Notes: generated by a model not told the origin, from the sequence alone. A stretch of 52,545 nucleotides of DNA from a virus (IMGVR_UViG_3300010163_000045:1-52545), one strand, 5' to 3'; positions 22,638-48,839 are shown, numbered from the stretch's first letter. Numbers and translations are program-made.

Positions 22638-22651
22638 AAGGAGAAAACAAA

Positions 22652-24199
22652 ATGGCAGGAGTAGTTGCTGGAGAGGGTAAGACGTTAAAAGATTATCCTC
22701 AGACGACAGAAGCAAACGCGAATGACCTTATCATGGTGGAGTCACCTACAGAGGGTACACGCGCAATGAAGTTTGGCGAGATTGCCGCCAATGTAGCGGA
22801 GCAGATGGCTGATACGCCCGAGTACGTTGCATTGAATAATCAGGCGCAGCAGGCTATCGATAGTGCCAATACGGCAGTTCAGACGGCCAACACTGCAGTG
22901 GAAAACCTGCAGCAGTATGACACCAGATTGGGCGAGATGGAAGATGCCCAGGATACATTGACCACTGCAATGGGTAATAAGCAGAACAAGGCTACCGACC
23001 CGAAAGAGTTGGGAGCTGGTTATCTGTACCAGCAGTCCGATGGTTCTGTGGTACTGACTGAGGCAAACCCGAAGTTCAAGTACACCATCATCGTGGATAA
23101 CGGAACAGACGGTACGGTCACGGCAGTTGAGTATGCAGATGATGCAGTCGGTATTACACCGGCGTCCGGAGCCAATTTGGGTGGATGGGCAAACACGGAG
23201 TTGCTGAAAGAATACTTCCGTCCTTGTGTAATCAAGAAGGGAGCTGATTCGCCGGCATATTTCCTGAACCCGAATAACCTGAAGAAGAAGTTGGATGATA
23301 CCGCATCGGTATTGACTGGAGCCGATGGTGACGTAATGGTTCAGGTCAAGAAGATGTATGGTAAGATTTCGAAGGTGGCTAATGGCAAGGTTGCAATTTC
23401 CATCAGTAACGTCCGCGAAGACGGTTCGTGGTTCTGTTGGAATGAGGTTGCAGGAGTGGAGAAAGAGTATCGGTATCGTGGTCGTTATATGGCTGGTTTT
23501 GCTACCGGTGATGAAACCATGATGCGTTCGATTTCTGGAGTACCGAAGACGGTCAACAAGACCAGGGCGGCGTTCAGGACTTTGGCAACAGCAATGGGGC
23601 CTCAGTATTGCCAGAATGATATCTATATGATTTTCTTATGGCAGTTCATGTACCTGCTGATGTATAAGAACCGGAACAGCCAGAGCGCTTTGGGACAGGG
23701 CAGGTCGCTGAGTTCCAATACCGCAAATGTGAACACTGGGTGGTCCGATAACTATGGCTGCTGCTTTGGTGACCAGGGTGGTGTCAATGGTGTGGTATTC
23801 CTCTGGGTTGAGGATTTCTATGCTGATACATGGGAATGGGCAGACGGCGTATGTTATGTGAACAATGTTTACAAGTTGACCCGTGACCCGTCCAAGTATA
23901 ATGATACTGGAGCCGGTTATGAGATTGAGCTGGCGTCTGGAATGACTGCAGCCAATAACAACGATAAGTATATCACCAAGTTGGCAATGACCAATGATGT
24001 TCCGTTCTTACCGGTTGGCTCCGGTGGAAGCTCGGCAACGTTCTGGTGTGATAACGTTTGGGTGGCTGATGCTACTCAGGTCGTTAGATTCGGCGGCGCT
24101 TGGGCTTATGCGGCTAAGGCGGGCGCGTTCTGCTGGTATCTGGCTTATACGGCTTCGGATGCGAATTCGAGTATCGGCTCGCGTCTGTGTCGAAATTAA
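22652..24199 (+). CDS. Distal tail fibre / receptor-binding protein, DGR target
   Basis: ATG 22652 follows AGGAG (ORF open from 22634). C-terminus ...FWCDNVWVADATQVVRFGGAWAYAAKAGAFCWYLAYTASDANSSIGSRLCRN contains the VR. Confidence 0.85.
   Translation: MAGVVAGEGKTLKDYPQTTEANANDLIMVESPTEGTRAMKFGEIAANVAEQMADTPEYVALNNQAQQAIDSANTAVQTANTAVENLQQYDTRLGEMEDAQDTLTTAMGNKQNKATDPKELGAGYLYQQSDGSVVLTEANPKFKYTIIVDNGTDGTVTAVEYADDAVGITPASGANLGGWANTELLKEYFRPCVIKKGADSPAYFLNPNNLKKKLDDTASVLTGADGDVMVQVKKMYGKISKVANGKVAISISNVREDGSWFCWNEVAGVEKEYRYRGRYMAGFATGDETMMRSISGVPKTVNKTRAAFRTLATAMGPQYCQNDIYMIFLWQFMYLLMYKNRNSQSALGQGRSLSSNTANVNTGWSDNYGCCFGDQGGVNGVVFLWVEDFYADTWEWADGVCYVNNVYKLTRDPSKYNDTGAGYEIELASGMTAANNNDKYITKLAMTNDVPFLPVGSGGSSATFWCDNVWVADATQVVRFGGAWAYAAKAGAFCWYLAYTASDANSSIGSRLCRN
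24080..24188 (+). repeat. DGR variable repeat (VR)
   Basis: 109-bp ungapped alignment with 24287..24395. It has 22 mismatches, and every one lies opposite a TR adenine. Confidence 0.9.
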
Positions 24200-24286
24200 A
24201 TTTGTAACAAACATAGGTATGGAAAATCATAGGGCGACCCATGATAGTGGATTGGATGTTTGGATTTGAAAAAAATTCATTAAGAA

Positions 24287-24395
24287 GTCGTTAAATTCAG
24301 CAGCAATTGGAATAATGCAGCTAAAGCAGGCACGTTCTACTGGAATCTGAATAATACAGCTTCGAATGCGAATTCGAATATCAGCTCACGTCTGT
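24287..24395 (+). repeat. DGR template repeat (TR)
   Basis: Noncoding copy of the VR. It is adenine-rich, with nine in-frame AAT triplets. Lies between the target gene and the RT. Confidence 0.9.
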
Positions 24396-24615
24396 TATGT
24401 GTGATAATAAAGGAGCCAGTTATCAGATAAGCTCCGCAATTATATCATGGGCGTCCGTGCCTGACCTATACTGTGCTGCTACCATGAAGGAAGATGGTAG
24501 TCAGGTGGGCAAAATATTGTTGAAAAGCTGTCTTAGTAAGTGCTCATACGAGATAAGGTGAGACGAAAGGTTGGCAAACTAAACACACAAGATTAAGCGC
24601 AGGCTACTATAAGGA

Positions 24616-25719
24616 ATGGAGAGCCGGACTAAGGTGAAAAGAGCGAGTGGATTGTTCGAGCAGGTCTACGATATCGACAATTTGGTATTAGCTCACAAGA
24701 ATGCCCGCAAAAGCAAAACGTTTTACACCGAAGTTCAGATGGTGGACAGTAACCCAGGTAAATATCTGTATGAGTTGCAAGATGCTATAAAGAATCATAC
24801 GTACCGGACATCTGAGTATGAAGTGTTTGAAAAGTTCGATGGCAATAAGGTACGGGAGATATACAAGTTGCCTTATTATCCTGATAGGGTATTCCAGTGG
24901 GCTTTGATTCAAGTTATCGAACCGTACTTGCTAAAGAATTTGACTGATGACACGTACAGTGCATTGCCGGGACGAGGGACGTACAAGGCTTACAAGAAGT
25001 TGAAAAAGGCACTGAGGGTTGATGCAGTTGGTACTCAGTGGTGCCTGAAGATAGATATATCCAAATATTATCCGAGTATCGACAAACAGATACTGAAGGA
25101 TAAGTATGCAAGGCTGTTCAAGGATAAGGATTTGCTGGAATTGATTTACGAATTGATTGATAGCACGTCTGGACCTACCGGAGTGCCGATTGGCAATTAT
25201 TTCAGTCAGTACTCCGGTAATTTTTATCTGAGCGCCTTTGACCACAAAGTAAAAGAGGAATGGCACGTCAAACATTATTTCCGGTATATGGATGATATGG
25301 TGTTCCTTGCAGAAACCAAAGAAGAGTTACAACAGTTGATAAACAAGATAATTCCGTATATGCGTAACGAGCTGCATCTGACGGTGAAGTCTAACTGGAG
25401 CATTTTCAGGGTTGAAGACAGAGGTATTGATTTTGTTGGCTATGTATTCCGTCATGGTAATATAAGGCTGAGGAAACGTATCACTGGAACGTTGAGGAAA
25501 ACCAGTATGGCAATCAAACGTCGTGTTAATAAAGGAATGCTGATAAACTATCATATGTACTGTTCAATCAATAGCATGTGTGGTTGGCTCCAGCATTGCA
25601 ATGGTGACGGCTTGAAGATGAAGTACGTAGACGTAATATGGGAGCATGTTGAAGAGTATCACGACGAAGTAATCGTAAAGATGAAAAGGAGGGAAAAGGA
25701 CAATGCAAAAGCTGCATGA
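24616..25719 (+). CDS. DGR reverse transcriptase
   Basis: 367 aa with FRYMDDMVFL (YxDD) and IGNYFSQYSGNFYL (the DGR-type I/LGxxxSQ motif). Alternative GTG start at 24634. Confidence 0.9.
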   Translation: MESRTKVKRASGLFEQVYDIDNLVLAHKNARKSKTFYTEVQMVDSNPGKYLYELQDAIKNHTYRTSEYEVFEKFDGNKVREIYKLPYYPDRVFQWALIQVIEPYLLKNLTDDTYSALPGRGTYKAYKKLKKALRVDAVGTQWCLKIDISKYYPSIDKQILKDKYARLFKDKDLLELIYELIDSTSGPTGVPIGNYFSQYSGNFYLSAFDHKVKEEWHVKHYFRYMDDMVFLAETKEELQQLINKIIPYMRNELHLTVKSNWSIFRVEDRGIDFVGYVFRHGNIRLRKRITGTLRKTSMAIKRRVNKGMLINYHMYCSINSMCGWLQHCNGDGLKMKYVDVIWEHVEEYHDEVIVKMKRREKDNAKAA

Positions 25720-25972
25720 TATTATCTATGATGCAAAGCCGGCTACTGTGACGGTATATGATACCTCAGTTATGGTGGTTACGGCTTGCACAGAGGTTGA
25801 GGTGACCGATGAAATGTCTGGAGCAACTTCGACCAAATGGAAGTGTGAAGTAGACCAGTATACCAATGCTGAGTATATCGAAACGTTGCAGGCAAGGATG
25901 GATAATACCGAGAATCAGGCGCTGCAGGCAATGGTCGGCTTGACTGAGGTGTACGAGATGATGTTAGGATAA
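25703..25972 (+). CDS. Hypothetical protein (tail-fibre accessory position)
   Basis: 89 aa with SD AGGAGGG. Acidic, so not Avd-like. Confidence 0.55.
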   Translation: MQKLHDIIYDAKPATVTVYDTSVMVVTACTEVEVTDEMSGATSTKWKCEVDQYTNAEYIETLQARMDNTENQALQAMVGLTEVYEMMLG

Positions 25973-25985
25973 GGAGGGACAAAAG

Positions 25986-26126
25986 ATGGCTGCAGTATAT
26001 GCAAACCTTATTATTAAGGGCATCAAGCAGATTGAGCAGGTGCCTGAGGTAATACGCGAGGAGGTCAAGAACATTTTGGCTGAGCGTGGTTACCCGGAGT
26101 TGGCAGGTGGTGAAAATGCTGTGTAG
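25986..26126 (+). CDS. Small conserved protein, paralogue 1
   Basis: 46 aa reading MAAVYANLIIKGIKQIEQVPEVIREEVKNIL. Follows AAGGAGGG. Too short for the ORF track. Confidence 0.55.
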   Translation: MAAVYANLIIKGIKQIEQVPEVIREEVKNILAERGYPELAGGENAV

Positions 26127-26175
26127 TATCCGGCTTTTCATATTAAGAGTTTTGTTACGAAAGGAGGAACAAACG

Positions 26176-26307
26176 ATGGCTGAGGTTTATGCTACGCTGA
26201 TTATTAAGGGCGTGAAGACGTATGCTCAGGTTCCGGCGGTTATCAAGCCGAAAGTGAAAGCTGTGCTTGAAGCTCTGGAGCTCGGTGAGCTGGCTACAGA
26301 AGAGTAA
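26176..26307 (+). CDS. Small conserved protein, paralogue 2
   Basis: 43 aa reading MAEVYATLIIKGVKTYAQVPAVIKPKVKAVL. Follows AAGGAGG. Confidence 0.55.
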   Translation: MAEVYATLIIKGVKTYAQVPAVIKPKVKAVLEALELGELATEE

Positions 26308-34101: not shown

Positions 34102-34130
34102 TTGACTTCCGGACTGGATAGGTGTATAAT
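34102..34130 (+). promoter_or_regulatory. Early-family promoter
   Basis: TTGACT, 17 nt (ending GGTG), TATAAT. Confidence 0.7.
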
Positions 34131-34201
34131 TAAAATATAGCTGGAACACTAACCTCAGTTGAGGGTGTGACGGTTACCAAACAAAAGCAAAGGAGGCAAA
34201 A

Positions 34202-35074
34202 ATGAAAACGATAACAGTAAAGACTTCGTATGAGGGTGTGCATTGTTGGCCTGAGGCACCTGACGAAGTGAGTTTCTTGAGAGAACCGCACCGGCATATG
34301 TTTGTGGTCAGTGCTGAGGTGGAAGTGACAGGCAACGACAGAGAAATTGAATTCATCATGCTGAAGCGCCACATTGACAAATGGCTCCATATTCAGATGG
34401 ACGCAGATAGCAATGTATGGCAGATGGGTCGGCTGAGCTGTGAGCAGGTGGCTAAAATGGTACTGGATGTGGTCCATGAATATTGTGGTGATATTCCGTT
34501 GGATGAACAAACGGTAAGAGTTCGTGGCATTTCTGTTACGGTATCAGAGGATGGAGAGAATGGTGCAAGCGTAAGTAATCAGTCGTGGAGCATTCCAACC
34601 GCTGTAACGGCCGGCGCATACATTGGAGGACAGTTTGTAGGGGCAATGGATAAGTGGACAATGGCTGATTATCAGGACAAGGCATACCAGAACATTCAGG
34701 AGCATTACAACCAGAAAGAGGAAATGATGCACTGGGCGATTGGTCTGGGGGAAGAAGCCGGGGAAGCGTTGTCGGTGGTCAAGCACCGGTATTATGCAGG
34801 ATGTTACAAAGATGATGATGACATGCTTGAGGATTTGGTCAGTGAGCTTGGTGACGTACTGTGGCACGTATCTGCATTGTGCACTGTTTTAGGTATCGGT
34901 CTGGAGGACGTGGCAAAGTATAATATTGCAAAGTTGGATAGCCGCTATCCGAATGGCAAGTTTGAAAGAGAGAGGTCTGAGTCCAGACACGAAGTATATC
35001 AGCAATGGAAAAAAGAAACCACACACGAAGATGTGATGAAGCAAATAAGAGAAAAGAGAGGTACGAACAGATGA
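34202..35074 (+). CDS. Fusion of a QueD/PTPS-like T-fold domain and a MazG-like NTP pyrophosphohydrolase
   Basis: N-terminus is YEGVHCWPEAPDEVSFLREPHRHMFVVSAEVEV...REIEFIMLK (cf. QueD AAHRLP...HGHSF). C-terminus is EEAGEALSVVKHRYY...ELGDVLWHVSALCTVLGIGLEDVAKYNIAKLDSRYPNG. Confidence 0.55.
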   Translation: MKTITVKTSYEGVHCWPEAPDEVSFLREPHRHMFVVSAEVEVTGNDREIEFIMLKRHIDKWLHIQMDADSNVWQMGRLSCEQVAKMVLDVVHEYCGDIPLDEQTVRVRGISVTVSEDGENGASVSNQSWSIPTAVTAGAYIGGQFVGAMDKWTMADYQDKAYQNIQEHYNQKEEMMHWAIGLGEEAGEALSVVKHRYYAGCYKDDDDMLEDLVSELGDVLWHVSALCTVLGIGLEDVAKYNIAKLDSRYPNGKFERERSESRHEVYQQWKKETTHEDVMKQIREKRGTNR

Positions 35075-35865
35075 AAGATTTCAAAGTAGCAGAGATTGTT
35101 CCGGTGGAACAGTTGGAGGATATTGCATCCAACCACTACCATATGTGTTTGGCACATCTGGTGGCAACCAATGGCATTCAGGCTCAGAGGTACACTGAGT
35201 TCTATCGGCGGATGTCTGATGAGGGCAAGTACGTTCTGATGGATAACGGAGCGGCTGAGGGTAGACAGTTAAATTATGACCGGCTGTTCCGCCAGTATGA
35301 GGAAATTCATCCGTCAGAGATTGTGGTGCCGGATACTCTGAACGATGCAAATGATACGCTGGCCAAAATGTTTAGTTGGCTTGGACAGTTCATCGGTCTG
35401 CCATATCGGTTCATGGCTGTTCCTCAGGGCAAGACGTTTGAAGAGTGGAAAGCGTGCGCATACATCATGATGCAGGAGAAACGTATCAATACGATTGGTA
35501 TCAGCAAGTTCCTGAATATCGCCACCGGTGATGAAACAATCCGGCATCAGGCTGTTCAGTATCTGGACGAGATTGCCGATAAACTGGGGCGTGACGATAT
35601 TGAGTACCATCTGTTGGGTTGTGATGAAGGTCCGGGTATCGTTGGAGGTATCCAGAGCATCAGCAAACGAGTGCGTGGATGTGACAGTGCATTCGCCTAC
35701 ATTGCCAGTAAGGCGGAAGTGGTGATTGAGAGGAATACCAAACGGCCGGCAGGCACAATTGATTTCCTGAATGATGCACGTCTGGATGGTTTCATTCCTA
35801 ACAGCTATGCTTTTGAGGGTATCTGTGGAGTACTGAGCAATACCAATGGGAAGGAGTGGAAGTGA
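35071..35865 (+). CDS. dpdA: DpdA/TGT-like transglycosylase candidate
   Basis: 264 aa with ATGA overlap to the upstream gene. Has VLMDNGAAEG, IVVPDTL and RGCDSAFAY (TGT-like Asp motifs). Sits among QueD-like, QueF-like and YhhQ genes. Confidence 0.5.
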   Translation: MKDFKVAEIVPVEQLEDIASNHYHMCLAHLVATNGIQAQRYTEFYRRMSDEGKYVLMDNGAAEGRQLNYDRLFRQYEEIHPSEIVVPDTLNDANDTLAKMFSWLGQFIGLPYRFMAVPQGKTFEEWKACAYIMMQEKRINTIGISKFLNIATGDETIRHQAVQYLDEIADKLGRDDIEYHLLGCDEGPGIVGGIQSISKRVRGCDSAFAYIASKAEVVIERNTKRPAGTIDFLNDARLDGFIPNSYAFEGICGVLSNTNGKEWK

Positions 35866-36209
35866 TGGCCAGTTTTGAGAATAATGACAAGATAAGCAAT
35901 CTTCATATGTATGGCATCAAAAAGAAGTTCTTCTGTCCGATTGGTAAATCTGAGTGCACATATGAGATTGAGATTGATATGGAGCCACGAAAAGTAATTT
36001 GTGATTATCTGGACGTGGATGCATTCATAAGAGGTATGGAGTGCCAGCAGACGTTGGAGAGTGCGTGTGCTGTAATCTGCAACCATATGGTGGAACAGTA
36101 TCAGCCGGATGCTGCTATGGTAAAGGTAAAATGTGAAGATGCAAAGCATATGCCGGTGGAAGTAACAAAAATGGTTCGTCGCAATATTTGTGACGGCAGC
36201 TACAATTGA
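35865..36209 (+). CDS. QueF-like T-fold protein
   Basis: 114 aa from ATG 35865 (TGATG overlap, SD AAGGAG). FCPIGKSECTYEIEIDMEP... parallels QueF CPxTGQPDxxxIxIxYxP. The E-S-K-S-x-K NADPH motif was not seen. Confidence 0.45.
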   Translation: MASFENNDKISNLHMYGIKKKFFCPIGKSECTYEIEIDMEPRKVICDYLDVDAFIRGMECQQTLESACAVICNHMVEQYQPDAAMVKVKCEDAKHMPVEVTKMVRRNICDGSYN

Positions 36210-36229
36210 GAATGAAGGAGAAAAGAACG

Positions 36230-36904
36230 ATGAGAAAAACTGAGAAAAATCTGTACCTGCTGTATATGGTGTTTGCAATTGGTTTGATTACGGCCAACTG
36301 CATTGGAGCTAAAATCTTCACTACTGGTATCTATCTGTTTGGCAATCCGGTAACATTGACGTGTGGTACTCTGGCGTATCCGATTACGTTCCTATGCACC
36401 GATGTGATTGGAGAGCTGTGGGGCAGGGAGAAAGCAAGGATTGCAGTGGGGTATGGTTTCGTCTGCCAGATTATTTCCACACTAATTATTGTGGTGGCCA
36501 GATATCTGCCGGCAGTGGACGGAGCGCAGCAGGATGCATACGTTGCTTTGTTGGGTCAGAATTATATGTTCGTGTTTGCCAGTCTGGTGGCATACTACTG
36601 CAGCCAGAGTTGGGATGTAATGGTGTTCCATAAAATCCGGAGTGCTTACATAAGGAAGCATGGCAGTACGAAAGGCGGCAAGTGGTTATGGAACAATGGC
36701 AGCACAATGACCAGCCAGTTGATTGACAGTATCCTTTATGCAGGTATTGCTTTCGGTGTAGGTTTCGGATGGCTGTGGACAGACGGTATGCAGATTATGC
36801 TGCTGAACATGATTCTGGGTCAGTGGTTGATTAAGGTTATTCTGGCGGCATTGGATACACCGGTGTTCTATTTCCTGACGAGAAATTCAGAAAATAATTT
36901 TTGA
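36230..36904 (+). CDS. yhhQ: Queuosine-precursor transporter, YhhQ/VUT (DUF165) family
   Basis: Multi-TM protein with ANCIGAKIF...G...AYPITFLCTDVIGELWG and SQSWDVMVFHKIR...LWNNGSTMTSQLIDSILY. ATG 36230 follows GAAGGAG. Confidence 0.75.
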   Translation: MRKTEKNLYLLYMVFAIGLITANCIGAKIFTTGIYLFGNPVTLTCGTLAYPITFLCTDVIGELWGREKARIAVGYGFVCQIISTLIIVVARYLPAVDGAQQDAYVALLGQNYMFVFASLVAYYCSQSWDVMVFHKIRSAYIRKHGSTKGGKWLWNNGSTMTSQLIDSILYAGIAFGVGFGWLWTDGMQIMLLNMILGQWLIKVILAALDTPVFYFLTRNSENNF

Positions 36905-36911
36905 AAACATG

Positions 36912-36940
36912 TTGACTTTTCCGGCGAAATCATGTAAGAT
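36912..36940 (+). promoter_or_regulatory. Early-family promoter
   Basis: TTGACT, 17 nt, TAAGAT. Its leader resembles that of the 26715 promoter. Confidence 0.65.
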
Positions 36941-39211: not shown

Positions 39212-40033
39212 ATGGGTGTTGTAGATGATATCAAGAAGTCGGCTCAGGCGAATGGTACCAAAATACAGTCCTCAGATGCTGCCAGTCTGGAAAAGATATT
39301 GAACCGAATGTTTTATCTGCCAAAGGATATAAAGAAAGAAACTGCATTCGTAAAGAATGTTATGACCAGAGGTCAGGAGAGTACGGAGCGTGTTGGTCTA
39401 CATGCTTCGGCTCTTATCGTTGGTGATAAAAAGTTCTGCCTGAGGCAGCAAGTATTGAGTCTGATATATAAGCAGTTGCAGGGTGAGCAGGTCAATGTAG
39501 GCTTACGGAGAATCTTTGAAGAGGGCAATGCAGTCCACGAGAAGTGGCAAAGGTTATTCCTGAGAGCTGGTTATTCGGAAGTAGACGATTTGGACGTGAC
39601 ACAGTTCAATGAGAAGTTCAGAGTGAGCTTCACTCCGGACATTATCTGCCGGATACCTGAGTTTCACGATGGTGATATGATTGGTGAGCTGAAGTCGGTC
39701 AATACATATCAGTTTAGTAAAATGGCGAAGCATCCGTCTGCCGGAAAGCAATTGCAGTGGTATATGTATCTGTCTGGTATCCATAAAGGGTTTGTTCTGA
39801 GTGAGGACAAAAATATGCAGGAGGTCAAGATTGAGGTTTACGATTTTGACCCAAAGGTGGTGGAGCCATTCATCGAAAGGTGCCGACAGATTAAGGCAGC
39901 ATACAAAAGAGTATTCAGTGAGAAGAAAATGGTCAGGCGTCCATCGGATGCAAAGTCAGACGATTGCAAAAGGTGCCACGACTGTCCAATGAAGGTTGCT
40001 TGTTGGCAAACGTCACAAGCTGAGAGGATATGA
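39212..40033 (+). CDS. Cas4/RecB-like PD-(D/E)xK exonuclease with an Fe-S cysteine cluster
   Basis: Has DGDMIGELKSV and QLQWYMYL. Contains an N-terminal Cys (FCLRQ) and C-terminal CKRCHDCPMKVAC. Confidence 0.75.
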   Translation: MGVVDDIKKSAQANGTKIQSSDAASLEKILNRMFYLPKDIKKETAFVKNVMTRGQESTERVGLHASALIVGDKKFCLRQQVLSLIYKQLQGEQVNVGLRRIFEEGNAVHEKWQRLFLRAGYSEVDDLDVTQFNEKFRVSFTPDIICRIPEFHDGDMIGELKSVNTYQFSKMAKHPSAGKQLQWYMYLSGIHKGFVLSEDKNMQEVKIEVYDFDPKVVEPFIERCRQIKAAYKRVFSEKKMVRRPSDAKSDDCKRCHDCPMKVACWQTSQAERI

Positions 40034-40521
40034 GTACCACATTGACAGTGGCGCAGGCTGATAAGATAATGAGCCAAATTGGATATACCAGACATATGAG
40101 TGGATGCAATCCAAATACTGGTGAAGTTCTGGAGTGCTACTACAGCAATCGGAACGTAGAAGCATTCAGCATCAGCATTGGTGTGAGGTTGGCTGATGCA
40201 GGTTTTATGTTCCGGTACATTCATGGATTGCAAACAATGACGAGGCTCCAGACTGATTGGTTTTCGCCACTGACCAGCAAAAAGCATTTTATGAAGTGGT
40301 ACAAGCAGTTCGTTGAGGATGCATTTTGGTTTAGCAAGAGGTATACGAATGTGATGGATAAAAGGATATTGGAAGATATGGTGACACTGTGTGATGGTGT
40401 CCTGAGCCAGTTTACGCCGGAACAGTGGAACGAGTTATCTCAGAATGATAAGATGAAGTGGTGTGACGATTTTGGTTTGGAACACGCACACGTGATAAAG
40501 GATGAAGGCGATGGATGGTAA
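40030..40521 (+). CDS. Hypothetical protein
   Basis: 163-aa ORF with ATGA overlap to the upstream gene. Confidence 0.55.
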   Translation: MSTTLTVAQADKIMSQIGYTRHMSGCNPNTGEVLECYYSNRNVEAFSISIGVRLADAGFMFRYIHGLQTMTRLQTDWFSPLTSKKHFMKWYKQFVEDAFWFSKRYTNVMDKRILEDMVTLCDGVLSQFTPEQWNELSQNDKMKWCDDFGLEHAHVIKDEGDGW

Positions 40522-40681
40522 AGCATTGTACGATAACAATAAGGATTTCAAGCAGTATGTGGACAAGTATGCCAACCAGAGGAAACTATCAATCGAGGAA
40601 GCACTGAGCCATGCTCTGGTGAAAGAGGTTGGCAAAGTATACGGAGGAAAAGAGAATGAAAGTAATCAATGCAGGATATAA
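40511..40681 (+). CDS. Hypothetical small protein
   Basis: 56 aa reading MDGKALYDNNKDFKQYVDKYANQRKLSIEEALSHALVKEVGKVYGG.... Too short for the ORF track. Confidence 0.4.
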   Translation: MDGKALYDNNKDFKQYVDKYANQRKLSIEEALSHALVKEVGKVYGGKENESNQCRI

Positions 40682-41307
40682 GATATTGAGTGAGATATCT
40701 GTGGGGGGGGCTCAAGGAATTGCAGCACATTGAGAAGATTGGCAGAGTGTGCTATAAGTCCGAAGGGCAAATAACTGAGGACGGTGAATCGGCAAAGAAG
40801 TTCATCCGCAAGCTGATTAACAATGGACATGAGGCAATGCTGGAACATTCCAGCTTATCGGTTCTGTTTACGGTGGATAGAGGTGTTACACATGAATTGG
40901 TTCGCCACCGGATTATGAGCTTTGCTCAGGAAAGCACACGATACTGTAACTACAGCGGAGATAAGTTCGGCAACGAAATTACGGTTATCAAGCCATGTTT
41001 CCTCGAAGAGGGTACTATGAAGTATGGGACGTGGGAGCAGGCAGTTTTTGATGCAGAGAAGGCATATTTTGAAATGCTTGACGATGGATGCAGTCCGCAG
41101 GAAGCTCGTTCGGTTTTGCCAAATAGCACGAAGGCTGATATCACACTGACAGGCAATTACCGTGAGTGGAGGCATTTTTTCAAGTTAAGGGCTTGTGGTG
41201 TTACTGGTGCACCACATCCTCAGATGCTTGAGGTGGCCGTTCCGTTACTGCAGGAAATAAACAAGTTGATACCTGTGGTGTTCGAGGATTTGGCAAAAAA
41301 TGTATAA
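40656..41307 (+). CDS. thyX: FAD-dependent thymidylate synthase ThyX, frame broken at a G8 run (40703-40710)
   Basis: ATG 40656 follows GGAGG and gives MKVINAGYKILSEISVGG, stopping at 40731-33. The +1 frame continues LKELQHIEKIGRVCYKS...VRHRIMSFAQESTRY (RHRxxxxxxS ThyX motif). Confidence 0.8.
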
Positions 41308-41908
41308 GCAGATTGTTATCGGTATTGACCAGTCATATAAGAATACCGGTATCAGTATCATAGCAGATGGAAAGATAAGGGACATTAAGAGCATCAGGCT
41401 TGAAAAGTGTTCCTGCAATTCAGAAAGGCGAGAGGTGCTCAGGCGTAGTCTTGGGCATCTCATGTCCGTCGTTGCAAATAAATCGGAACAGATAGTGTGT
41501 TTGGTTGAGCGGACCAGAGTGCATGGTGGTGAGGGGAGTTTCATCAATATAGACGTAATCAAGTCAATGGGTTCGCTTACGGCTCTAACTGTAGACGTAA
41601 TGTACTCATACGGCGTTGATGTTTATTCGGTGGATACCAGAAGTTGGAAGTCTCAGGTGGTAGGGACAAGTAAGCCTATGGCAAATAAGTTTGGTGTTCC
41701 AAATGAGAAGTGGCCAACCATCAAGTGGGTCATCAAACAAGGGTTTGAGGATAAAATCCTGATAGACGTAACGGATACCAAAAAGCAAAAGGGAGTGTTC
41801 GTGAGGGACGGCAGAAAGTATCAGTACAATGATGATGCAGCAGATAGTGTTGGCATTGCAATGTACTATGTGGTAGGTGACCACGATAAACTACAGCTCG
41901 AAAGGTAG
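41300..41908 (+). CDS. RuvC-like Holliday junction resolvase
   Basis: Has IVIGIDQSYKNTGISI at the N-terminus and DDAADSVGIAMYY near the C-terminus. Confidence 0.7.
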   Translation: MYKQIVIGIDQSYKNTGISIIADGKIRDIKSIRLEKCSCNSERREVLRRSLGHLMSVVANKSEQIVCLVERTRVHGGEGSFINIDVIKSMGSLTALTVDVMYSYGVDVYSVDTRSWKSQVVGTSKPMANKFGVPNEKWPTIKWVIKQGFEDKILIDVTDTKKQKGVFVRDGRKYQYNDDAADSVGIAMYYVVGDHDKLQLER

Positions 41909-41917
41909 GTGGTACCG

Positions 41918-42109
41918 ATGGCAGGAGTAACGTGCTGTTACAAATGTCCTGACCGGCATCCCAATTGTCACAGTACATGTGATAAGTATATCCAGCAGAA
42001 AGCTCAGTTGGCTGAGGACAAGAAGAAAGAACGTGCCAATCGTAAGCCGGTTATCAAGAAAGGTGATTTCCTCGGTGATGCTGGTTTCCGGAAGCACAGA
42101 CGAAAATAA
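41918..42109 (+). CDS. Small Cys-rich protein
   Basis: 63 aa with CCYKCPDRHPNCHSTCDKY. Confidence 0.5.
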   Translation: MAGVTCCYKCPDRHPNCHSTCDKYIQQKAQLAEDKKKERANRKPVIKKGDFLGDAGFRKHRRK

Positions 42110-42122
42110 TTTGAAATTGCTG

Positions 42123-42151
42123 TTGACATTCTCCGGTATATATAGTATGAT
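42123..42151 (+). promoter_or_regulatory. Early-family promoter
   Basis: TTGACA, 17 nt, TATGAT. Confidence 0.6.
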
Positions 42152-42198
42152 ATATATAAGATATATAATAAGTTCTCAAGAAGAGAGGAGAAACAGAT

Positions 42199-42984
42199 AT
42201 GGCACAGTACACCAAAGAGTTCAAGAGTATCCATGAGTTTTACGATTATCTTTGCAACACACCATTCAATGATGCATTCAGATGGGAACGTCATGCAAGC
42301 GTTGATGAGAGTTATGGTTTTACAAAGACGCATAACTTTGAACAAGCAGTAGACCTGATGAAGAATGGTTGGTCTGATATGAGCCAGAAATTGACGCAGA
42401 AGTTAAAAGCTGCTGCAAAACCGGCTCCACAAATGAAACCGAGAAATGTTTTGTCGGTGGCAGGGTATCAGCCAGTAGTTGCTTTATATCTTGCTGGTGT
42501 ACCAACCAACATGATGGACAAACAACTGGTTGCAGTAAAGTCAAAAGTGATAACGGTAACCAAAATGGTCAACTACAATTGTGGTGTTGATGCAGAGGAT
42601 ATCGAAAAGGAAAGCATCAAGGCAATGCAGGTGGTCAAGAAATTAGAAGCTCAAGGATATAGAGCGAACCTGAATGTTGGTTGGGGCACTTGTGCAGGTG
42701 ATAGAGAGATAATCCTGAAAGTGAGAATCAAGAATGCAAATGAAAAGCTGAATGTCAGCAAGTTGGCTTTCCCAATGGTTCATCCGAGTATGTTGAGAAG
42801 ACTGTTCTTCAGGTATTTGGAGGTATGTCCGGATACAACAAAGAGTTATGTTTGGGGATATGGTAGGCCGGCAGGGTTCAATAGTATGAAGAAAGCATTC
42901 CCGGACGATATAGTATTACCGAGTATCTGGAACGGTGATGTTGATAAGATAAATGATTTGGAAAGTCTGCAGGCTACCTTTTAA
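42199..42984 (+). CDS. Hypothetical protein (partner of the downstream AAA ATPase?)
   Basis: 261-aa ORF with SD GAGGAG. No motif recognised. Confidence 0.6.
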   Translation: MAQYTKEFKSIHEFYDYLCNTPFNDAFRWERHASVDESYGFTKTHNFEQAVDLMKNGWSDMSQKLTQKLKAAAKPAPQMKPRNVLSVAGYQPVVALYLAGVPTNMMDKQLVAVKSKVITVTKMVNYNCGVDAEDIEKESIKAMQVVKKLEAQGYRANLNVGWGTCAGDREIILKVRIKNANEKLNVSKLAFPMVHPSMLRRLFFRYLEVCPDTTKSYVWGYGRPAGFNSMKKAFPDDIVLPSIWNGDVDKINDLESLQATF

Positions 42985-43030
42985 GGTGGTCTGTGGCTCC
43001 AAACTTTTTCAAAGAATTTGTAAAAACGTG

Positions 43031-43058
43031 TTGACATTTATGTTTCGTGGTGTATACT
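43031..43058 (+). promoter_or_regulatory. Early-family promoter
   Basis: TTGACA, 16 nt (ending GGTG), TATACT. Confidence 0.6.
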
Positions 43059-43116
43059 TATAACATAATCAAACAACAAACAAATTCAGAGTTCAATTGA
43101 ACGGAGGTACAAAAAG

Positions 43117-44259
43117 ATGGCATGGAAAATGACACATGAGCAAACAGAGGTTGGTTTCGAAGTAGTAAAGATGGAGCAGGCAAAGAAAGCCGGTCACGTA
43201 GTAACATATGTGAAGTATCCTACAATGGACCAGTTGTACACCTACGTAAGAAAGACCAGCCGGAAAGAAGATGGCAACTACGAAACAGTGGTTGACGGAT
43301 GTAGTGTAAGATACAATCCAATTACATTAGAAGTGGTATCGGTTACAAGGTTGTACGATACGAAGGGTATGAAGAAGAAAACAAACCCAGGCAGCTCTGG
43401 TGTAAAGGTTGGCGATGCAGTAGCAAGCATCAAGGCTGAGATGGAAGATAAGGAAATCGAGGTTACCGCCCCCCTTTCTAAAAAGGTTGAATATGAAGAG
43501 GGAATCGTACACCACGAGAAATATGAAACAATCAAGATGTGCCTGATGAGTGATATTCCGGTTTACCTTGCAGGACCGGCAGGAAGTGGAAAGAACCATA
43601 CAGTAGAGCAGATAGCTGATGAGTTAGGTTGGGAGTTCTACTTCAGCAATAGTGTACAGCAAGAGTACAAGTTGACAGGTTTCATCGATGCAGGTGGCAA
43701 GTACCATGAGACAGAGTTCTACAAGGCTTGCACGAGTGATAAGGATTGTGTATTCTTCTTAGATGAAATGGATGCAAGTATTCCTGAGGTACTGGTTCTT
43801 CTGAATGCTGCAATAGCAAATGGGTATTTTGAATTTCCTTGTGGCAGAGTTGAATTAGAACATGTACATTTCGTAGCAGCCGGCAATACGGTAGGAAGTG
43901 GTGCAGATGAAATGTATACCGGTAGAATGGTACTGGACCAGGCAACATTGGACAGGTTTGCAATAATCGATTTTGACTACAGTCTGAGAATTGAAATGTC
44001 CATCAGCAAAGGAAATGCTGATTTGGTAAGTTTCATCAGACAGTTAAGGGAAGAGGCAGACAAGAAAGGAATCAGAGCAACATTCAGTTACAGATGTATC
44101 ACAATGGTGACAAAGTTGGAAGTAGCTGGAATGGATGATGAAGAGATTATCCGGATAGCAGTTATGAAAGGACTGGACAAGGATACAATCAACACATTCA
44201 ACATCAGTGGTGCAACAAAGTATCATGGAGCATTGAAGAAAGTTCAGATGGCGGCATAA
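43117..44259 (+). CDS. AAA+ ATPase (MoxR/AAA_5-like) with an N-terminal extension
   Basis: Has VYLAGPAGSGKNH (Walker A) and CVFFLDEMD (Walker B). Confidence 0.75.
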   Translation: MAWKMTHEQTEVGFEVVKMEQAKKAGHVVTYVKYPTMDQLYTYVRKTSRKEDGNYETVVDGCSVRYNPITLEVVSVTRLYDTKGMKKKTNPGSSGVKVGDAVASIKAEMEDKEIEVTAPLSKKVEYEEGIVHHEKYETIKMCLMSDIPVYLAGPAGSGKNHTVEQIADELGWEFYFSNSVQQEYKLTGFIDAGGKYHETEFYKACTSDKDCVFFLDEMDASIPEVLVLLNAAIANGYFEFPCGRVELEHVHFVAAGNTVGSGADEMYTGRMVLDQATLDRFAIIDFDYSLRIEMSISKGNADLVSFIRQLREEADKKGIRATFSYRCITMVTKLEVAGMDDEEIIRIAVMKGLDKDTINTFNISGATKYHGALKKVQMAA

Positions 44260-44276
44260 GCCGCCTCTGGCTTTTT
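44250..44276 (+). terminator. Hairpin plus T-run
   Basis: GGCGGC-ATAA-GCCGCC spanning the stop codon, followed by TCTGGCTTTTT. Confidence 0.45.
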
Positions 44277-44300
44277 GGAGGATAGGATGAGGATAGGATA

Positions 44301-44399
44301 ATGAAGAGATTTATGATGGTGTTAGGATTATGTTTATTGTTGGTGTTTGCGACAGCATTGTTTGTGGCATGGGTTGGAGCAGGGCACTATTGTGGATAG
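44301..44399 (+). CDS. Possible 32-aa hydrophobic peptide
   Basis: Reads MKRFMMVLGLCLLLVFATALFVAWVGAGHYCG. The SD is weak. Confidence 0.3.
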   Translation: MKRFMMVLGLCLLLVFATALFVAWVGAGHYCG

Positions 44400-44411
44400 G
44401 AGTTGGTCAAG

Positions 44412-44669
44412 ATGGCAAAGTTAGTCGAGAAGAACAGTGAGGGTGATGACAAGATTCTGGAGATTAAGAGAATGACAAGTGGTTATCACTATTGCAATGT
44501 CTGCCATGAGCAGATAAGCGATGAGAATGTCCAGAATTTTGTTATTGGTAACAAAGGACACGAGTTAGCGTTTGGACGTAATAACTTCAGCACAACAGTC
44601 TGCTTGTGTACGGAATGTTTGAATAAGTTTGCAGATTTGTTGTGGCAGTACTTAGAAGAAGAGGCATAA
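44412..44669 (+). CDS. Zn-ribbon protein
   Basis: 85 aa with CNVC...CLCTEC. Confidence 0.55.
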   Translation: MAKLVEKNSEGDDKILEIKRMTSGYHYCNVCHEQISDENVQNFVIGNKGHELAFGRNNFSTTVCLCTECLNKFADLLWQYLEEEA

Positions 44670-44696
44670 ATAAATTAAAATATTTTCAAATAAATG

Positions 44697-44725
44697 TTGA
44701 CATTCGCTTCCATATGGTGTATTAT
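44697..44725 (+). promoter_or_regulatory. Early-family promoter
   Basis: TTGACA, 17 nt (ending GGTG), TATTAT. Confidence 0.65.
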
Positions 44726-44779
44726 ATAATCATAAGGAACACACAACAATAAGTTTTCAGTAGAAAAGGAGATTTCAAG

Positions 44780-45208
44780 ATGAAAAAAGAGATTATGAAC
44801 CAGGTAGCAAAGATGACAGTAGCAGAAATGAGAAAAGCAGCAAGCCAGTACGGTATCAAGAATGCAAAGAAGTACAAGAGGGTTGAGCTGGAGCAGATGA
44901 TGGTTGAGGCAATGGTTAAGGTAGCCGAGGAAAAGGCAGCAGCAGAGAAGGCAGCTAAAGAAGCTGAGAAGAAAGCTGTAAAGAAGACTGAGAAGTCTGA
45001 CAAGCGTTACAAAGCTGCAGACCTGAAAGCAACCAAAGAAGAGATTGAGGCAATGGCAGTTGAAGTGATTAGTAATCTGGCAGACATTGATTTGTTCCAG
45101 GTGAACAGAAAGGTCCTGATTGTGGTTATGAAGAACCTGAAATGTGACCGTTGGTACAGAACATATGACAAGCCGACTATGGTAAATAAAATCATGGCTG
45201 CTGCATAA
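44780..45208 (+). CDS. Lys-rich HeH-like domain protein
   Basis: 142 aa with MTVAEMRKAASQYGIKNAKKYKRVELEQMMVEAM. Confidence 0.6.
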   Translation: MKKEIMNQVAKMTVAEMRKAASQYGIKNAKKYKRVELEQMMVEAMVKVAEEKAAAEKAAKEAEKKAVKKTEKSDKRYKAADLKATKEEIEAMAVEVISNLADIDLFQVNRKVLIVVMKNLKCDRWYRTYDKPTMVNKIMAAA

Positions 45209-45236
45209 GCAGCCTGAGGCAAAGGAGGAGTAAGCA

Positions 45237-45494
45237 TTGATAAAGATGCGTACAAATGTAGAGCCTGATGCTCAATGTTGTGAGTGTGGCAATGGACGGA
45301 ACAGTTCGTTAGAGCTTTTCGATATTTGTATCGGTGGTCAGATATTTACAATCTGTGACCTGTGTAACGAACAGTTGTTCCAGAAAACGTTAAGAGCCAC
45401 TTGCAATGTGAACCACAAAGTGAAGCAGCCGAGTGATATGGCAATAATCAGAAAGCGTCAGGCAGGGAGTTACATCAAGAAGGAGAGTGAGTAG
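45237..45494 (+). CDS. Zn-ribbon protein
   Basis: Has CCECGN...CDLCNEQL. TTG 45237 is well spaced from AAAGGAGG. ATG 45246 is the alternative. Confidence 0.5.
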   Translation: MIKMRTNVEPDAQCCECGNGRNSSLELFDICIGGQIFTICDLCNEQLFQKTLRATCNVNHKVKQPSDMAIIRKRQAGSYIKKESE

Positions 45495-45690
45495 CATGGC
45501 AATGTTGGAGCAGATAGCAAGGACGTATGGTATGAATGCAGATTATCTGGATTGGCATACAGGTCTGATTTATCAGATGCCAAGAGCGGTGGTCAATCCT
45601 GAGAACCCGAATGAGTTGTTGGTGCCGGTTGTTGATGGTACTGGTGTACCTTACGGAACGGCACATATGGAGCGGCCATGTCTGGAATAA
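45487..45690 (+). CDS. Hypothetical protein
   Basis: 67-aa ORF in tight overlap with its neighbours. Confidence 0.45.
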   Translation: MSSMAMLEQIARTYGMNADYLDWHTGLIYQMPRAVVNPENPNELLVPVVDGTGVPYGTAHMERPCLE

Positions 45691-46049
45691 ACTTTGATAG
45701 CATGCCAAGCAAGTATTGGGACGAGCATGTAAAAATCAGTTACTTGCAAAGGAGAATAATCGTATACAGCATCATGTACTACGAAATGAATGAGAGCTGT
45801 GTATCAGACAAACAGTATGATGAGATAAGCCAGCAATTGGTTCATCTGCAGCGGTCAGTCGACTTGAAAGAGTTTAAGAGGTCTACTTACTATTATGCAA
45901 TGTATGACTTCGATGGTTCCACTGGTTTCGATATTCCAAGTCGGCTGACCAAAAAGGACAGGCAATATCTTACACAGATAGCGACTATGGTGTTGCAAAG
46001 CTGGAAGAACCATACAAGTGCAGAGGAGAGGAGAAAGCAACTATGCTGA
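45678..46049 (+). CDS. Hypothetical protein
   Basis: 123-aa ORF with YSIMYYEMNESCVSDKQYDEISQQL. Confidence 0.5.
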   Translation: MSGINFDSMPSKYWDEHVKISYLQRRIIVYSIMYYEMNESCVSDKQYDEISQQLVHLQRSVDLKEFKRSTYYYAMYDFDGSTGFDIPSRLTKKDRQYLTQIATMVLQSWKNHTSAEERRKQLC

Positions 46050-46402
46050 AAAGAAAAGAGCTGTCCAACCTGAAGCATGACGATACCAGAACATTAGTTG
46101 GTTTCAGTTATGATGTGGTGGACAAGGATAGAAGAGAGAGTGACCCGGAGCGGTTATGTTTCATGGCAGATTGGGTAAAAGGCGAGCAGCCGGGAGAATG
46201 GAACATGAGAGTGGTGCTACCGAGAACAAGGGATGCAGACAGTCAGGTTTACAATTTCGGTTATGTAATGCCGAGAGAGGGTTTGCCGGTAGAGCTTATT
46301 GCTGCAACTGGGCTGAGGTACTTCCAGATGTATCTGAAAGAGGAAGTCCAGAGGAAAAGCAACTACGACTTCGTGTTGGGTGAGTTGCTGAGGGATATGT
46401 AA
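46043..46402 (+). CDS. Hypothetical protein
   Basis: 119-aa ORF. Confidence 0.5.
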   Translation: MLKRKELSNLKHDDTRTLVGFSYDVVDKDRRESDPERLCFMADWVKGEQPGEWNMRVVLPRTRDADSQVYNFGYVMPREGLPVELIAATGLRYFQMYLKEEVQRKSNYDFVLGELLRDM

Positions 46403-46881
46403 TGGCTATGAGACGAAGTGGTAAGGAATACCGAAAGATTGAAAAGGACGTTATGGAGTTGTTAGGTCTGGAGCCAACAAAGAACAGTGGTTCAGGTTGG
46501 ATTGAAAAAGAAGATGGTCAGTCCGATAATGTTCTGTGTCAGTTGAAGAGTACTGATGCACAGAGTATTAAGGTTGCAAAGTACGATTTGGACACGTTAC
46601 AGTACAATGCTATGGTGGCACACAAGTTACCGGTATTTGCAATCCAGTTTTTAGGAAGCAATGAGGTATATTTGGTGATGAAGCCGGAAGTGCTGGAGGA
46701 CATGGCAAAGTATTTGAAAACCGGAGAAGCACCCGAGCCATTTATCGGGATTGATTTAAGTGAGCATGAGGACATGACTGCTATTGGTGGTCGAGTAATA
46801 AAGTCAAGCTCAAGTGCAAGAGAGCAGTTCCACGAGGAACAAGAACAGAAGTATGGAAAGAAACGGAGGTCAGCTACATGA
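46402..46881 (+). CDS. Possible Hjc/PD-(D/E)xK-fold protein
   Basis: 159 aa with NSGSGWIEKEDGQSDNVLCQLKST, a pattern reminiscent of resolvase-type nucleases. Weak evidence. Confidence 0.3.
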   Translation: MAMRRSGKEYRKIEKDVMELLGLEPTKNSGSGWIEKEDGQSDNVLCQLKSTDAQSIKVAKYDLDTLQYNAMVAHKLPVFAIQFLGSNEVYLVMKPEVLEDMAKYLKTGEAPEPFIGIDLSEHEDMTAIGGRVIKSSSSAREQFHEEQEQKYGKKRRSAT

Positions 46882-47261
46882 TACCGATTAAGGTAAGTCA
46901 GGTGGTCAAGTATGGTGGACATAGCCTTGCGGCATCTGGTTCTGTGAACCTGACGTTCAAAGCAATGTACTCCGAGTTGACCAAAACGATACAGTTGCAT
47001 CAGATGCTGAACAATGATGTGACGGTCAAAGCAAAGTTGCCGGGGCAGGCAAAGCCTATTATGTTAGGAATGTTTCGCATCAGTGGTTTGAATACCTCTG
47101 GCGATGGATGCAGCACAATAAAACTGAATGGCCTGAATACATATGTTGAAATGGACAATTTGAATTTGCTGCCAACCAAGCAGGATGGTGATGACGATTT
47201 GTTTATTGTCCGGTATGAGGCTGAGATAGAGGAGGAGGACGAAGACGGTGGCGAAGAGTAA
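46878..47261 (+). CDS. Hypothetical protein with an acidic C-tail
   Basis: 127-aa ORF ending EIEEEDEDGGEE. Confidence 0.5.
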   Translation: MIPIKVSQVVKYGGHSLAASGSVNLTFKAMYSELTKTIQLHQMLNNDVTVKAKLPGQAKPIMLGMFRISGLNTSGDGCSTIKLNGLNTYVEMDNLNLLPTKQDGDDDLFIVRYEAEIEEEDEDGGEE

Positions 47262-47514
47262 GACAGAGTACACTGAGATTACCAAAGCAGCAGTAACCGA
47301 GAGCCGGAACATTATCATCAGTGATTGTTCCAGAGGCGGCTTCACAATTGCTCAGCAGGTGGTTGTAAAAGAGGAAGACAGAGAGACGCCGGTATTTATG
47401 AAAGGAGCCTTTCATGTTGATGATATCCACGGTCTGTATAATTTGAGAGATTCGTTGAATCTGGCAATCCAGACCATAGAAAATCGGGAAAACGGAGAGG
47501 AAACATGGGATTAG
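47248..47514 (+). CDS. Hypothetical protein
   Basis: 88 aa with a GTG start after GAGGAGGAGG. Confidence 0.5.
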   Translation: MAKSKTEYTEITKAAVTESRNIIISDCSRGGFTIAQQVVVKEEDRETPVFMKGAFHVDDIHGLYNLRDSLNLAIQTIENRENGEETWD

Positions 47515-47564
47515 TGGTCAATATCACCAAAACGAATATTTAACAAAATATTTCGTATAAACTG

Positions 47565-47593
47565 TTGACTTTAACGTAGACCTGGTGTAAGAT
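47565..47593 (+). promoter_or_regulatory. Early-family promoter
   Basis: TTGACT, 17 nt (ending GGTG), TAAGAT. Confidence 0.65.
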
Positions 47594-47666
47594 ATAATCA
47601 TACCAAATAAATCCTCAGTTGAGGAAACACAAACCTATATTTCAAGAAGAAAAGGAGAAAACAAAA

Positions 47667-48380: not shown

Positions 48381-48427
48381 TCGGTGTCCCCGTCACTCCA
48401 CAGAACAAACGATAGGTAAGCGAGAGT

Positions 48428-48461: not shown

Positions 48462-48476
48462 AATTAAGGAGAGCTT

Positions 48477-48836: not shown

Positions 48837-48839
48837 TGG

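Follow-up and report, generated by a model that had tools for sequence, protein, structure and literature searches.

A close described counterpart of the operon analysed here, four genes (g1 to g4) in the viral stretch IMGVR_UViG_3300010163_000045:1-52545 (52,545 nucleotides, hereafter the window), is the module of Cellulophaga phage phiST. All guanine in phiST DNA is replaced by 2'-deoxy-7-deazaguanosine (dDG), and other phages with a DpdA3-type DNA-guanine transglycosylase are fully modified as well (Cui et al. 2023, PMC10516641). The phiST module consists of QueD, QueE, FolE, MazG, DpdL, an ATPase and DpdA3. DpdL is a predicted decarboxylase of 7-carboxy-7-deazaguanine (CDG), is separated from QueD (motif CxxxHGH) by the signature LxxxHRHxF, and is stated in the paper that defines it to co-occur with FolE, QueD and QueE (Cui et al. 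2023, PMC10516641). In bacterial DpdA (bDpdA), Asp95 serves as acid/base, Asp130 recognises the base and Asp256 is the nucleophile (PMC10164549). On the supply side, specificity in the YhhQ family of queuosine-precursor transporters varies among preQ0/preQ1 and queuine, with E. coli YhhQ taking preQ0 and preQ1 (PMC11130926), and YhhQ homologues in phages, together with possible uptake of exogenous precursor, have already been noted (Hutinet et al. 2019, PMC6884629).

With a probability of about 0.62, we read the window's operon as a DpdL/DpdA3-type DNA hypermodification module in which an importer has replaced the de novo CDG branch (FolE, QueD, QueE). The broader assignment of the operon to phage 7-deazaguanine DNA modification is supported. 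Like phiST, it has a DpdL with the LxxxHRHxF signature (31% identical), a DpdA3 (28% identical), a MazG-type pyrophosphohydrolase, a position beside polymerase III alpha and no QueC. Unlike phiST, it has no FolE, QueD or QueE and carries YhhQ and a QueF-L-like protein in their place; its DpdL and MazG are fused, and no ATPase gene lies between DpdL and DpdA3.

Operon structure and the families of its products

The window is an apparently complete siphovirus-type phage genome, with near-identical contigs (52,682 and 52,707 bp) in independent assemblies, and the region was found in rat, mouse and bovine gut sequencing runs (DNA assemblies). No database record holds the exact g2 protein, and genome context was read from a twin contig that is 95% identical. 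The operon sits in the replication block, with DNA polymerase III alpha on one side and RecA on the other, and DpdL and DpdA3 of phiST likewise adjoin polymerase III alpha. A first-pass annotation, made from the sequence alone, had placed a promoter at 34102 ahead of four translationally coupled genes, and this layout was recovered: all four genes are tightly packed on the + strand, the stop of g1 overlaps the start of g2 (ATGA at 35071-35074), the stop of g2 overlaps the start of g3 (TGATG at 35863-35867), and the 20-nucleotide gap between g3 and g4 holds an AAGGAG site ahead of the g4 start codon (ATG, 36230, as in the twin contigs). Three exact matches to TTGACT-N15-19-TATAAT lie in the window, at 7651, 28051 and 34102, where 0.06 would be expected, which makes a promoter family plausible. 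We found no convincing terminator between g4 and the promoter-like site at 36912-36940; the only + strand terminator-like site falls inside g4 and was not accepted as a terminator. An Rfam scan (E up to 1 for the operon, gathering thresholds for the whole window) returned no preQ1 riboswitch and no other RNA family. The coordinates of the operon and of further features are given in Table 1.

Table 1. Features of the operon and of other parts of the window, numbered from the first nucleotide of the window.
Feature	Position	Strand	Basis or remark
Strong sigma-70-like promoter, TTGACT-17 nt-TATAAT	34102..34130	+	11/12 consensus positions
AAGGAGG ribosome-binding site of g1	34190..34196	+	read from sequence
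g1 (DpdL-MazG fusion)	34202..35074	+	
g1 N-terminal domain (aa 1 to about 125), putative DpdL, QueD-paralogous T-fold	34202..34576	+	signature, homology
g1 C-terminal domain, MazG-type nucleoside triphosphate pyrophosphohydrolase	34649..35074	+	PF03819, phrog_229, metal motifs
g2, predicted DpdA3-family DNA-guanine transglycosylase, TIM barrel, 264 aa	35071..35865	+	fold, homology, invariant Asp
g3, QueF-L-like T-fold protein of an unnamed family, 114 aa	35865..36209	+	fold, family profile
g4, YhhQ/QPTR (COG1738, Vut_1) queuosine-precursor transporter family, 224 aa	36230..36904	+	PF02592, TIGR00697
Promoter-like site at the operon's downstream end, TTGACT-17 nt-TAAGAT	36912..36940	+	9/12 positions
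ADP-ribosyltransferase	6398-7633		PF03496 at 6e-25; between portal and capsid genes
ADP-ribosylglycohydrolase	7902-8750		PF03747 at 9e-47; between portal and capsid genes
Diversity-generating retroelement (DGR), complete	24080-25719		
DGR variable repeat	24080-24188		3' end of 521-aa open reading frame 22634-24199
DGR template repeat	24287-24395		
DGR reverse transcriptase	24616-25719		

The first gene, g1, had been described as a PTPS/QueD-like T-fold domain fused to MazG. The T-fold and the MazG fusion stand, but the QueD identity gives way to DpdL. Residues 26 to 34 read L26-R-E-P-H30-R-H32-M-F34, that is, LxxxHRHxF with Leu where QueD has its catalytic Cys, and g1 is 31% identical (E 1e-19, BLASTP) to phiST gp040 (CGPG_00067), which is DpdL by position. 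The N-terminal domain matches phrog_17812 at 1e-18, and the QueD match of these 125 residues is faint. H14, H30, H32, E50, E81, E116, L26 and F34 are each kept in at least 26 of 27 homologues. As judged from these features, the domain is predicted to consume CDG, not to make 6-carboxytetrahydropterin (CPH4). The MazG domain matches Pfam PF03819 at 5e-11, above the cut-off, and phrog_229 at 6e-28, and carries the metal motifs ExxE (E185-AG-E188) and ExxD (E215-LG-D218). DpdL and MazG are fused in the window, in its twins (L001-L003) and in L012, and are adjacent separate genes in most relatives. As for the genomic company described for DpdL, the window has a DpdA and no QueC, and no FolE, QueD or QueE alongside.

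By homology and modelled fold, g2 is a DpdA3-family DNA-guanine transglycosylase. The TIM barrel resembling DpdA and tRNA-guanine transglycosylase (TGT) proposed for it earlier thus holds, and can be refined to the short DpdA3 subfamily. The protein has no match in Pfam, NCBIfam or PDB sequence searches and belongs to a family of 319 homologous proteins. An AlphaFold2 model from a 44-homologue alignment is a confident TIM barrel (pLDDT 96). When this model was searched against the PDB with Foldseek, DpdA 7ui4 (DNA preQ0 insertase) ranked first and TGTs took ranks 2-6, and the best match in BFVD was a 259-residue phiST protein (TM-score 0.78), probably gp042. The latter is the founding DpdA3 (CGPG_00065), with which g2 shares 28% identity (E 2e-17, BLASTP; 3.8e-28 with the profile hidden Markov model, HMM, of the family). 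Matches by tblastn include phiST (2e-10), a 'DNA guanine transglycosylase' of Flavobacterium phage immuto, and Bacillus and Weizmannia phages. The motifs MDNG, VPDT and GCDS lie at residues 57, 86 and 203; their aspartates D58, D88 and D205 are invariant in the 44 homologues and stand at strand ends in the same order as the Asp residues of TGT and DpdA. In an hhalign comparison of DpdA3 with DpdA1/2-type proteins, GCDS falls on the nucleophile motif SADST and HLLG on VHLLG, with a probability of only 18%, and by motif resemblance D58 and D88 may correspond to the acid/base and base-recognition Asp of bDpdA. Relative to DpdA of Salmonella Montevideo (7ui4) and the TGTs, g2 has the TIM barrel in common and carries three invariant Asp residues whose order, with the likeness of GCDS to S(A/I)DST and of HLLG to VHLLG, suggests a corresponding active site, but it has 264 residues against at least 413, and the ParB-like DpdB partner of bacterial DpdA was not found in the window. 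Some homologues of g2 are longer, such as P0063 (394 residues) and P0113 (436 residues). The former has a PTPS domain (PF01242) fused to DpdA3 and represents a second kind of fusion joining a QueD/DpdL-type T-fold to the module.

The annotation of g4 as a clear YhhQ/VUT-family transporter is upheld. The protein exceeds the cut-offs of PF02592 (Vut_1; E 1.6e-43, 149 bits against 27) and TIGR00697 (115.8 bits against 50.95), as expected for YhhQ/QPTR likeness, and has several hydrophobic segments. It scores 37 bits against the E. coli-type equivalog NF008406, below the cut-off of 252. The g4 clade differs from E. coli YhhQ/QPTR by the insertion KHGSTKGGKWLWNN, and the context of g4 suggests CDG or another DpdL substrate rather than preQ0/preQ1 only. 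An importer carried by a phage had been thought unusual. This view did not survive: there is the precedent of Hutinet et al. 2019 (PMC6884629), and our scan found relatives of YhhQ encoded on 197 IMG/VR contigs.

For g3, a QueF-like T-fold had been proposed. Its fold is upheld by a confident model (pLDDT 94.6) of a single T-fold, beta2-alpha2-beta2, which superposes on archaeal QueF-L 5jyx with a target-normalised TM-score of 0.86 and an rmsd of 1.6 A over 101 residues (Foldseek) and also matches QueF and GTP cyclohydrolase I structures. Its identity as the reductase QueF is not upheld: the QueF NADPH motif E(S/L)K(S/A)hK(L/Y)(Y/F/W) occurs in none of 60 aligned family members, the Asp of QueF and QueF-L is lost, and QueF-L is the closer relative. 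No match was found in Pfam or NCBIfam. A word-indexed search yielded five close relatives, and an exhaustive search yielded 138 representative clusters of about 105 residues. The family profile matches the QueF-L sequence at E 4e-5, placing the Cys of FCPxG on Cys21 and an invariant Glu on the Glu of HEE; in QueF-L, this Cys forms a thioimide with preQ0 and the Glu binds the base (PMC5485725). In the 60-sequence alignment, C24 is nearly invariant and E65 invariant, and at the general acid/base position (Cys plus seven residues) 38 members have Tyr, 16 have Cys and 2 have Phe. The family thus resembles the archaeosine synthase QueF-L of Pyrobaculum calidifontis (5jyx/5k0p) in being a lone T-fold of about 105 residues with the thioimide Cys, the base-binding Glu and no NADPH motif. 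It differs in the replacement of QueF-L Asp28, in the invariant D47, Y48 and H95 that are peculiar to the phage family, and in a context of phage DNA modification, usually adjoining YhhQ and/or QueC. The active site on this QueF-L-type scaffold has changed, and we do not file g3 as QueF-L.

We gathered nine genomic contexts of the g3 family by looking them up individually and by scanning, with HMMs, loci that had been retrieved for another purpose. In most of them the gene lies directly upstream of YhhQ, and in 7 of the 9 it is beside or near QueC, which fits a protein acting on preQ0. In the window clade, which has no QueC, g3 may take imported preQ0 as its substrate or may have arrived as a pair with YhhQ. 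Since several sister phages do without it (L014, L016, L017 and L020, all of which keep DpdL, MazG, DpdA3 and YhhQ), g3 is dispensable and, in our reading, accessory. Two other roles for g3 were considered and set aside. As a minimal GTP cyclohydrolase I, it would have equally good structural matches, but the zinc ligands are missing and FolE stands alongside in one locus (L006); as a nitrilase feeding DpdL, a role set aside only as the main account, it would, next to its usual neighbour QueC, create a futile cycle.

De novo precursor genes and the importer cassette

The statement in the first-pass annotation that the genome holds no FolE, QueE or QueC was confirmed, and QueD was likewise not found. 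When 13 phage FolE, QueD, QueE and QueC sequences were searched against the six-frame translation of the window (phmmer --max), the best E was 0.036; the same queries do detect one another across loci. Small HMMs of the four families (--max) had no match in the six-frame window, and none of the four occurs among the precomputed Pfam matches of the 95%-identical twin contig. Pfam searches of open reading frames (ORFs) of at least about 70 residues at 1-27,176, and of ten of the longer ORFs at 39,212-50,637, returned none either; ORFs past about 50,640 and short ORFs were covered by the six-frame phmmer and HMM searches only. The matches that Pfam gave in the twin contig and the window ORFs are terminase, portal, capsid, tail, lysin, DGR reverse transcriptase, primase, polymerase III alpha, RecA and ThyX. 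Lacking the de novo genes, the phage must obtain its precursor from a source other than its own genome, and to this extent the earlier proposal that the base is drawn from the host pool or imported is borne out.

Comparison with related phages shows what occupies the place of these genes. We annotated 55 IMG/VR loci with DpdA3 relatives. In the clade of the window, the gene order is primase, PolIII-alpha, DpdL, MazG, DpdA3, (g3), YhhQ, RecA. Three loci with the same backbone (L021-L023; RecA E about 1e-186, PolIII-alpha E 0) read DpdL, MazG, DpdA3, QueD, QueE, FolE and, further on, RecA. The interval from DpdA3 to RecA therefore opens either with QueD-QueE-FolE or with (g3)-YhhQ, and because same-backbone relatives carry QueD-QueE-FolE in the g3-YhhQ slot, we conclude that the cassette with the importer takes the place of the genes for making CDG. 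Across the DpdA3 loci, DpdL is paired either with FolE, QueD and QueE or with YhhQ; DpdL and QueC occur together in none of the 55, and neither was present in 25 within the flank read. YhhQ is kept in every member of the salvage-type clade that we examined. A search of genome contigs with DpdA3 gave only two of phage size, both from metagenome bins, and neither an integrated prophage nor a host.

The association is also seen from the side of the transporter. We annotated 82 YhhQ loci, comprising 80 kept from the scan that found the 197 contigs and two others. The commonest arrangement, in 39 loci, is DpdL, DpdA (phrog_887 type) and YhhQ; DpdA, QueC and YhhQ follow in 11 and DpdA with YhhQ in 9. 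Altogether, about 50 of the 82 loci contain DpdL, DpdA and YhhQ, all but one without FolE, QueD and QueE within 7 kb, and QueC is present in 17, again all but one without FolE, QueD and QueE. Both partners of YhhQ, QueC and (as predicted) DpdL, consume CDG, which makes a CDG-type precursor likelier than preQ0 for the DpdL branch. The assumption that the phage handles preQ0/preQ1 accordingly fits DpdL poorly, and the comparative evidence favours CDG or another DpdL substrate. Among gut bacteria, 62 genomes with QueC but no FolE, QueD or QueE are predicted to salvage CDG (Rodionov et al. 2019, PMC6593275). The combination of DpdL, DpdA and YhhQ without FolE, QueD and QueE runs contrary to the distribution of DpdL as described (PMC10516641).

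An isolated phage carries the same kind of module. The temperate Faecalibacterium phage Roos (PP479939; L069 3757-6353) encodes a ParB_N protein, DpdL, a transglycosylase of the DpdA1/2 type and YhhQ in orf76-79, four genes that its annotation lists as hypothetical and that the Roos paper does not mention. No FolE, QueC, QueD or QueE occurs in the whole Roos genome. Roos, a gut phage of Clostridia that also has a DGR, is thus like the window in its salvage-type DpdL, DpdA and YhhQ module, with a YhhQ 52% identical to g4, and in its lack of de novo genes. It differs in being temperate, in having neither MazG nor g3, and in its DpdA, which belongs to the longer DpdA1/2 type (phrog_887-like) and follows a ParB_N gene.

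Mechanism, extent of modification and competing accounts

The sequence evidence above shows the protein families, the operon layout, the lack of de novo genes and the swap of cassettes. What g4 carries, what DpdL does chemically, which base is modified and how widely, and what g3 contributes are inferred in the following proposed scheme. Early in infection, g4 would enter the host membrane and import a 7-deazaguanine precursor from the gut lumen, to which the host pool may add. The DpdL domain of g1 would turn the carboxylated precursor CDG into the base to be inserted, probably 7-deazaguanine, and g2 would exchange guanine in phage DNA for that base by means of a TGT/DpdA-type Asp nucleophile and Asp acid/base. 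The fused MazG domain would hydrolyse a nucleoside triphosphate. As an accessory, g3 may use its conserved Cys to bind preQ0, a nitrile, and then convert or hold this precursor. Phage DNA modified in this way would withstand some host restriction enzymes.

Several points weigh against this scheme. For g2, there is no sequence-level match to any TGT or DpdA in the PDB, the profile-profile match of its family to DpdA1/2-type proteins is weak (the 18% given above), and the structural CxCxxC...H zinc motif of TGT and bDpdA is absent, the cysteines of g2 lying at 26, 129, 184, 204 and 252. The known substrates of YhhQ are preQ0, preQ1 and queuine, not CDG (PMC11130926). The activities of DpdL and DpdA3 are unproven biochemically, and the authors who named them failed to obtain dDG in E. 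coli (PMC10516641). Two further points bear on the extent of modification. GATC, CTAG and CAGCTG are wholly missing from the window, against expected counts of 229, 32 and 24. The window also has 23,574 guanines per genome copy, so that by our own arithmetic a burst of about 100 would call for about 2 million bases per cell, a millimolar amount in cell terms.

The absence of GATC argues against replacement of every guanine, as avoidance would then be needless, and the demand for precursor makes complete replacement by salvage doubtful. GGCC in the window stands at 0.38 of expectation. GATC avoidance is a difference from phiST: GATC counts are normal in the de novo DpdL phages, phiST and L021-L023 among them, the latter with the same backbone as the window. 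Several salvage-type relatives are also depleted of GATC, L015 and L016 are not, and differences in host confound the comparison. We expect modification in the window phage to be partial or site-selective. As for the proposal that guanine replacement serves as an anti-restriction strategy here, the kind of module fits, and blanket protection does not, given the total absence of GATC.

Partial modification, with which the avoidance of GATC would accord, would also suit another chemistry performed by the same machinery, which we consider possible though doubtful. In this account, preQ0/preQ1 is imported, DpdA3 inserts preQ0, and g3 makes archaeosine (dG+) or the amide, acting on the free base or in DNA; DpdL-MazG acts on a substrate other than CDG, and a fraction of guanines is present as dPreQ0, dG+ or dADG. 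The retention of the QueF-L thioimide Cys and Glu in g3 and its superposition on QueF-L at 1.6 A speak for this account, as do the placement of g3 beside or near QueC, the maker of preQ0, in 7 of 9 contexts, the carriage of preQ0 and preQ1 by E. coli YhhQ, and the unproven activity of DpdL. However, the four sister phages without g3 keep DpdL, MazG, DpdA3 and YhhQ, so that the core pathway can do without g3, and the g3 family has Tyr, Cys or Phe where QueF and QueF-L have their acid/base Asp. The mutual exclusion of DpdL and QueC, together with the presence of QueD-QueE-FolE without QueC in the sister slot, suggests that the pathway branches at CDG and not at preQ0.

A more far-reaching form of salvage, which we hold to be unlikely, would make DpdL-DpdA-YhhQ a minimal but complete salvage pathway, widespread among gut phages. 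The YhhQ clade would import CDG or 7-deazaguanine, outside the known substrates of YhhQ, and g3 would perform a new T-fold reaction, acting like a nitrilase or nitrile hydratase through its thioimide Cys and turning imported preQ0 into a base that DpdL/DpdA3 can use. If so, the phage could use whichever queuosine precursor the gut community leaks.

It is more improbable still that the precursor (CDG or preQ0) comes from the queuosine pathway of the host, with phage YhhQ as an auxiliary gene that only supplements this supply or does something else. De novo queuosine synthesis is found in about half of gut bacterial genomes (PMC6593275), and Hutinet et al. 2019 saw no correlation of phage YhhQ with any phage group (PMC6884629), both of which would be in keeping with such a role. 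A merely auxiliary transporter is hard to reconcile with the position of YhhQ in the QueD-QueE-FolE slot of the sister phages, with its retention throughout the salvage-type clade examined, and with its very strong association with DpdL or QueC and a DpdA.

Finally, that the module acts on host tRNA and shifts queuosine status to bias translation is very improbable: TGT enzymes, QueF-L and YhhQ do serve tRNA modification in cells, but the characterised proteins closest to g2 come from phages with modified DNA (phiST, Flavobacterium phage immuto and, per PMC10516641, Campylobacter phage CP220), the module is embedded among replication genes, and g2 is a bare 264-residue barrel with no PUA or other tRNA-binding domain.

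Further features of the window and implications

Outside the operon, the window holds a complete DGR, in which 22 of the 22 differences between the repeats fall at template adenines. Just downstream of its reverse transcriptase, at 25971-26243, are two 83-nucleotide direct repeats, 75% identical and 190 nucleotides apart. Each opens with a ribosome-binding site and an ATG, and they resemble the starts of two small tandem paralogous genes. The ADP-ribosylglycohydrolase gene sits behind the TTGACT-N17-TATAAT promoter at 7651. A four-domain lysin (glucosaminidase, amidase_2, SPOR, CW_7) at 1795-3282 lies between the large terminase and portal genes, an unusual place for a lysis gene. The coding strand of the whole window shows a strong purine excess (G 28.1% vs C 16.7%, A 31.2% vs T 24.0%).

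All four kinds of protein in the operon are known or have close structural relatives. In the literature that we searched, where only Cui et al. 2023 names DpdL/DpdA3, the combination of DpdL, DpdA and YhhQ without FolE, QueD and QueE is undescribed. The same holds there for the swap of cassettes within a lineage, for how often the trio turns up in gut phages, one isolate among them, for the fusion of DpdL with MazG, and for the QueF-L-like family whose active site has changed.

Of the enzymes of 7-deazaguanine DNA modification in phages, DpdL and DpdA3 are the two that are least understood, and attempts to make either work in a test system have yet to succeed. That a natural module can consist of just DpdL, a DpdA and a transporter implies that these proteins suffice once a base that can be imported is supplied. 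The main value of the finding thus lies in a simple route to testing DpdL, DpdA3 and the transporter, and Roos, an isolate with the same module, offers virion DNA for mass spectrometry. If our reading of the operon is true, many gut phages would rely on queuosine precursors shared within the microbiota, which would tie their defence against restriction to a micronutrient pool of the community.

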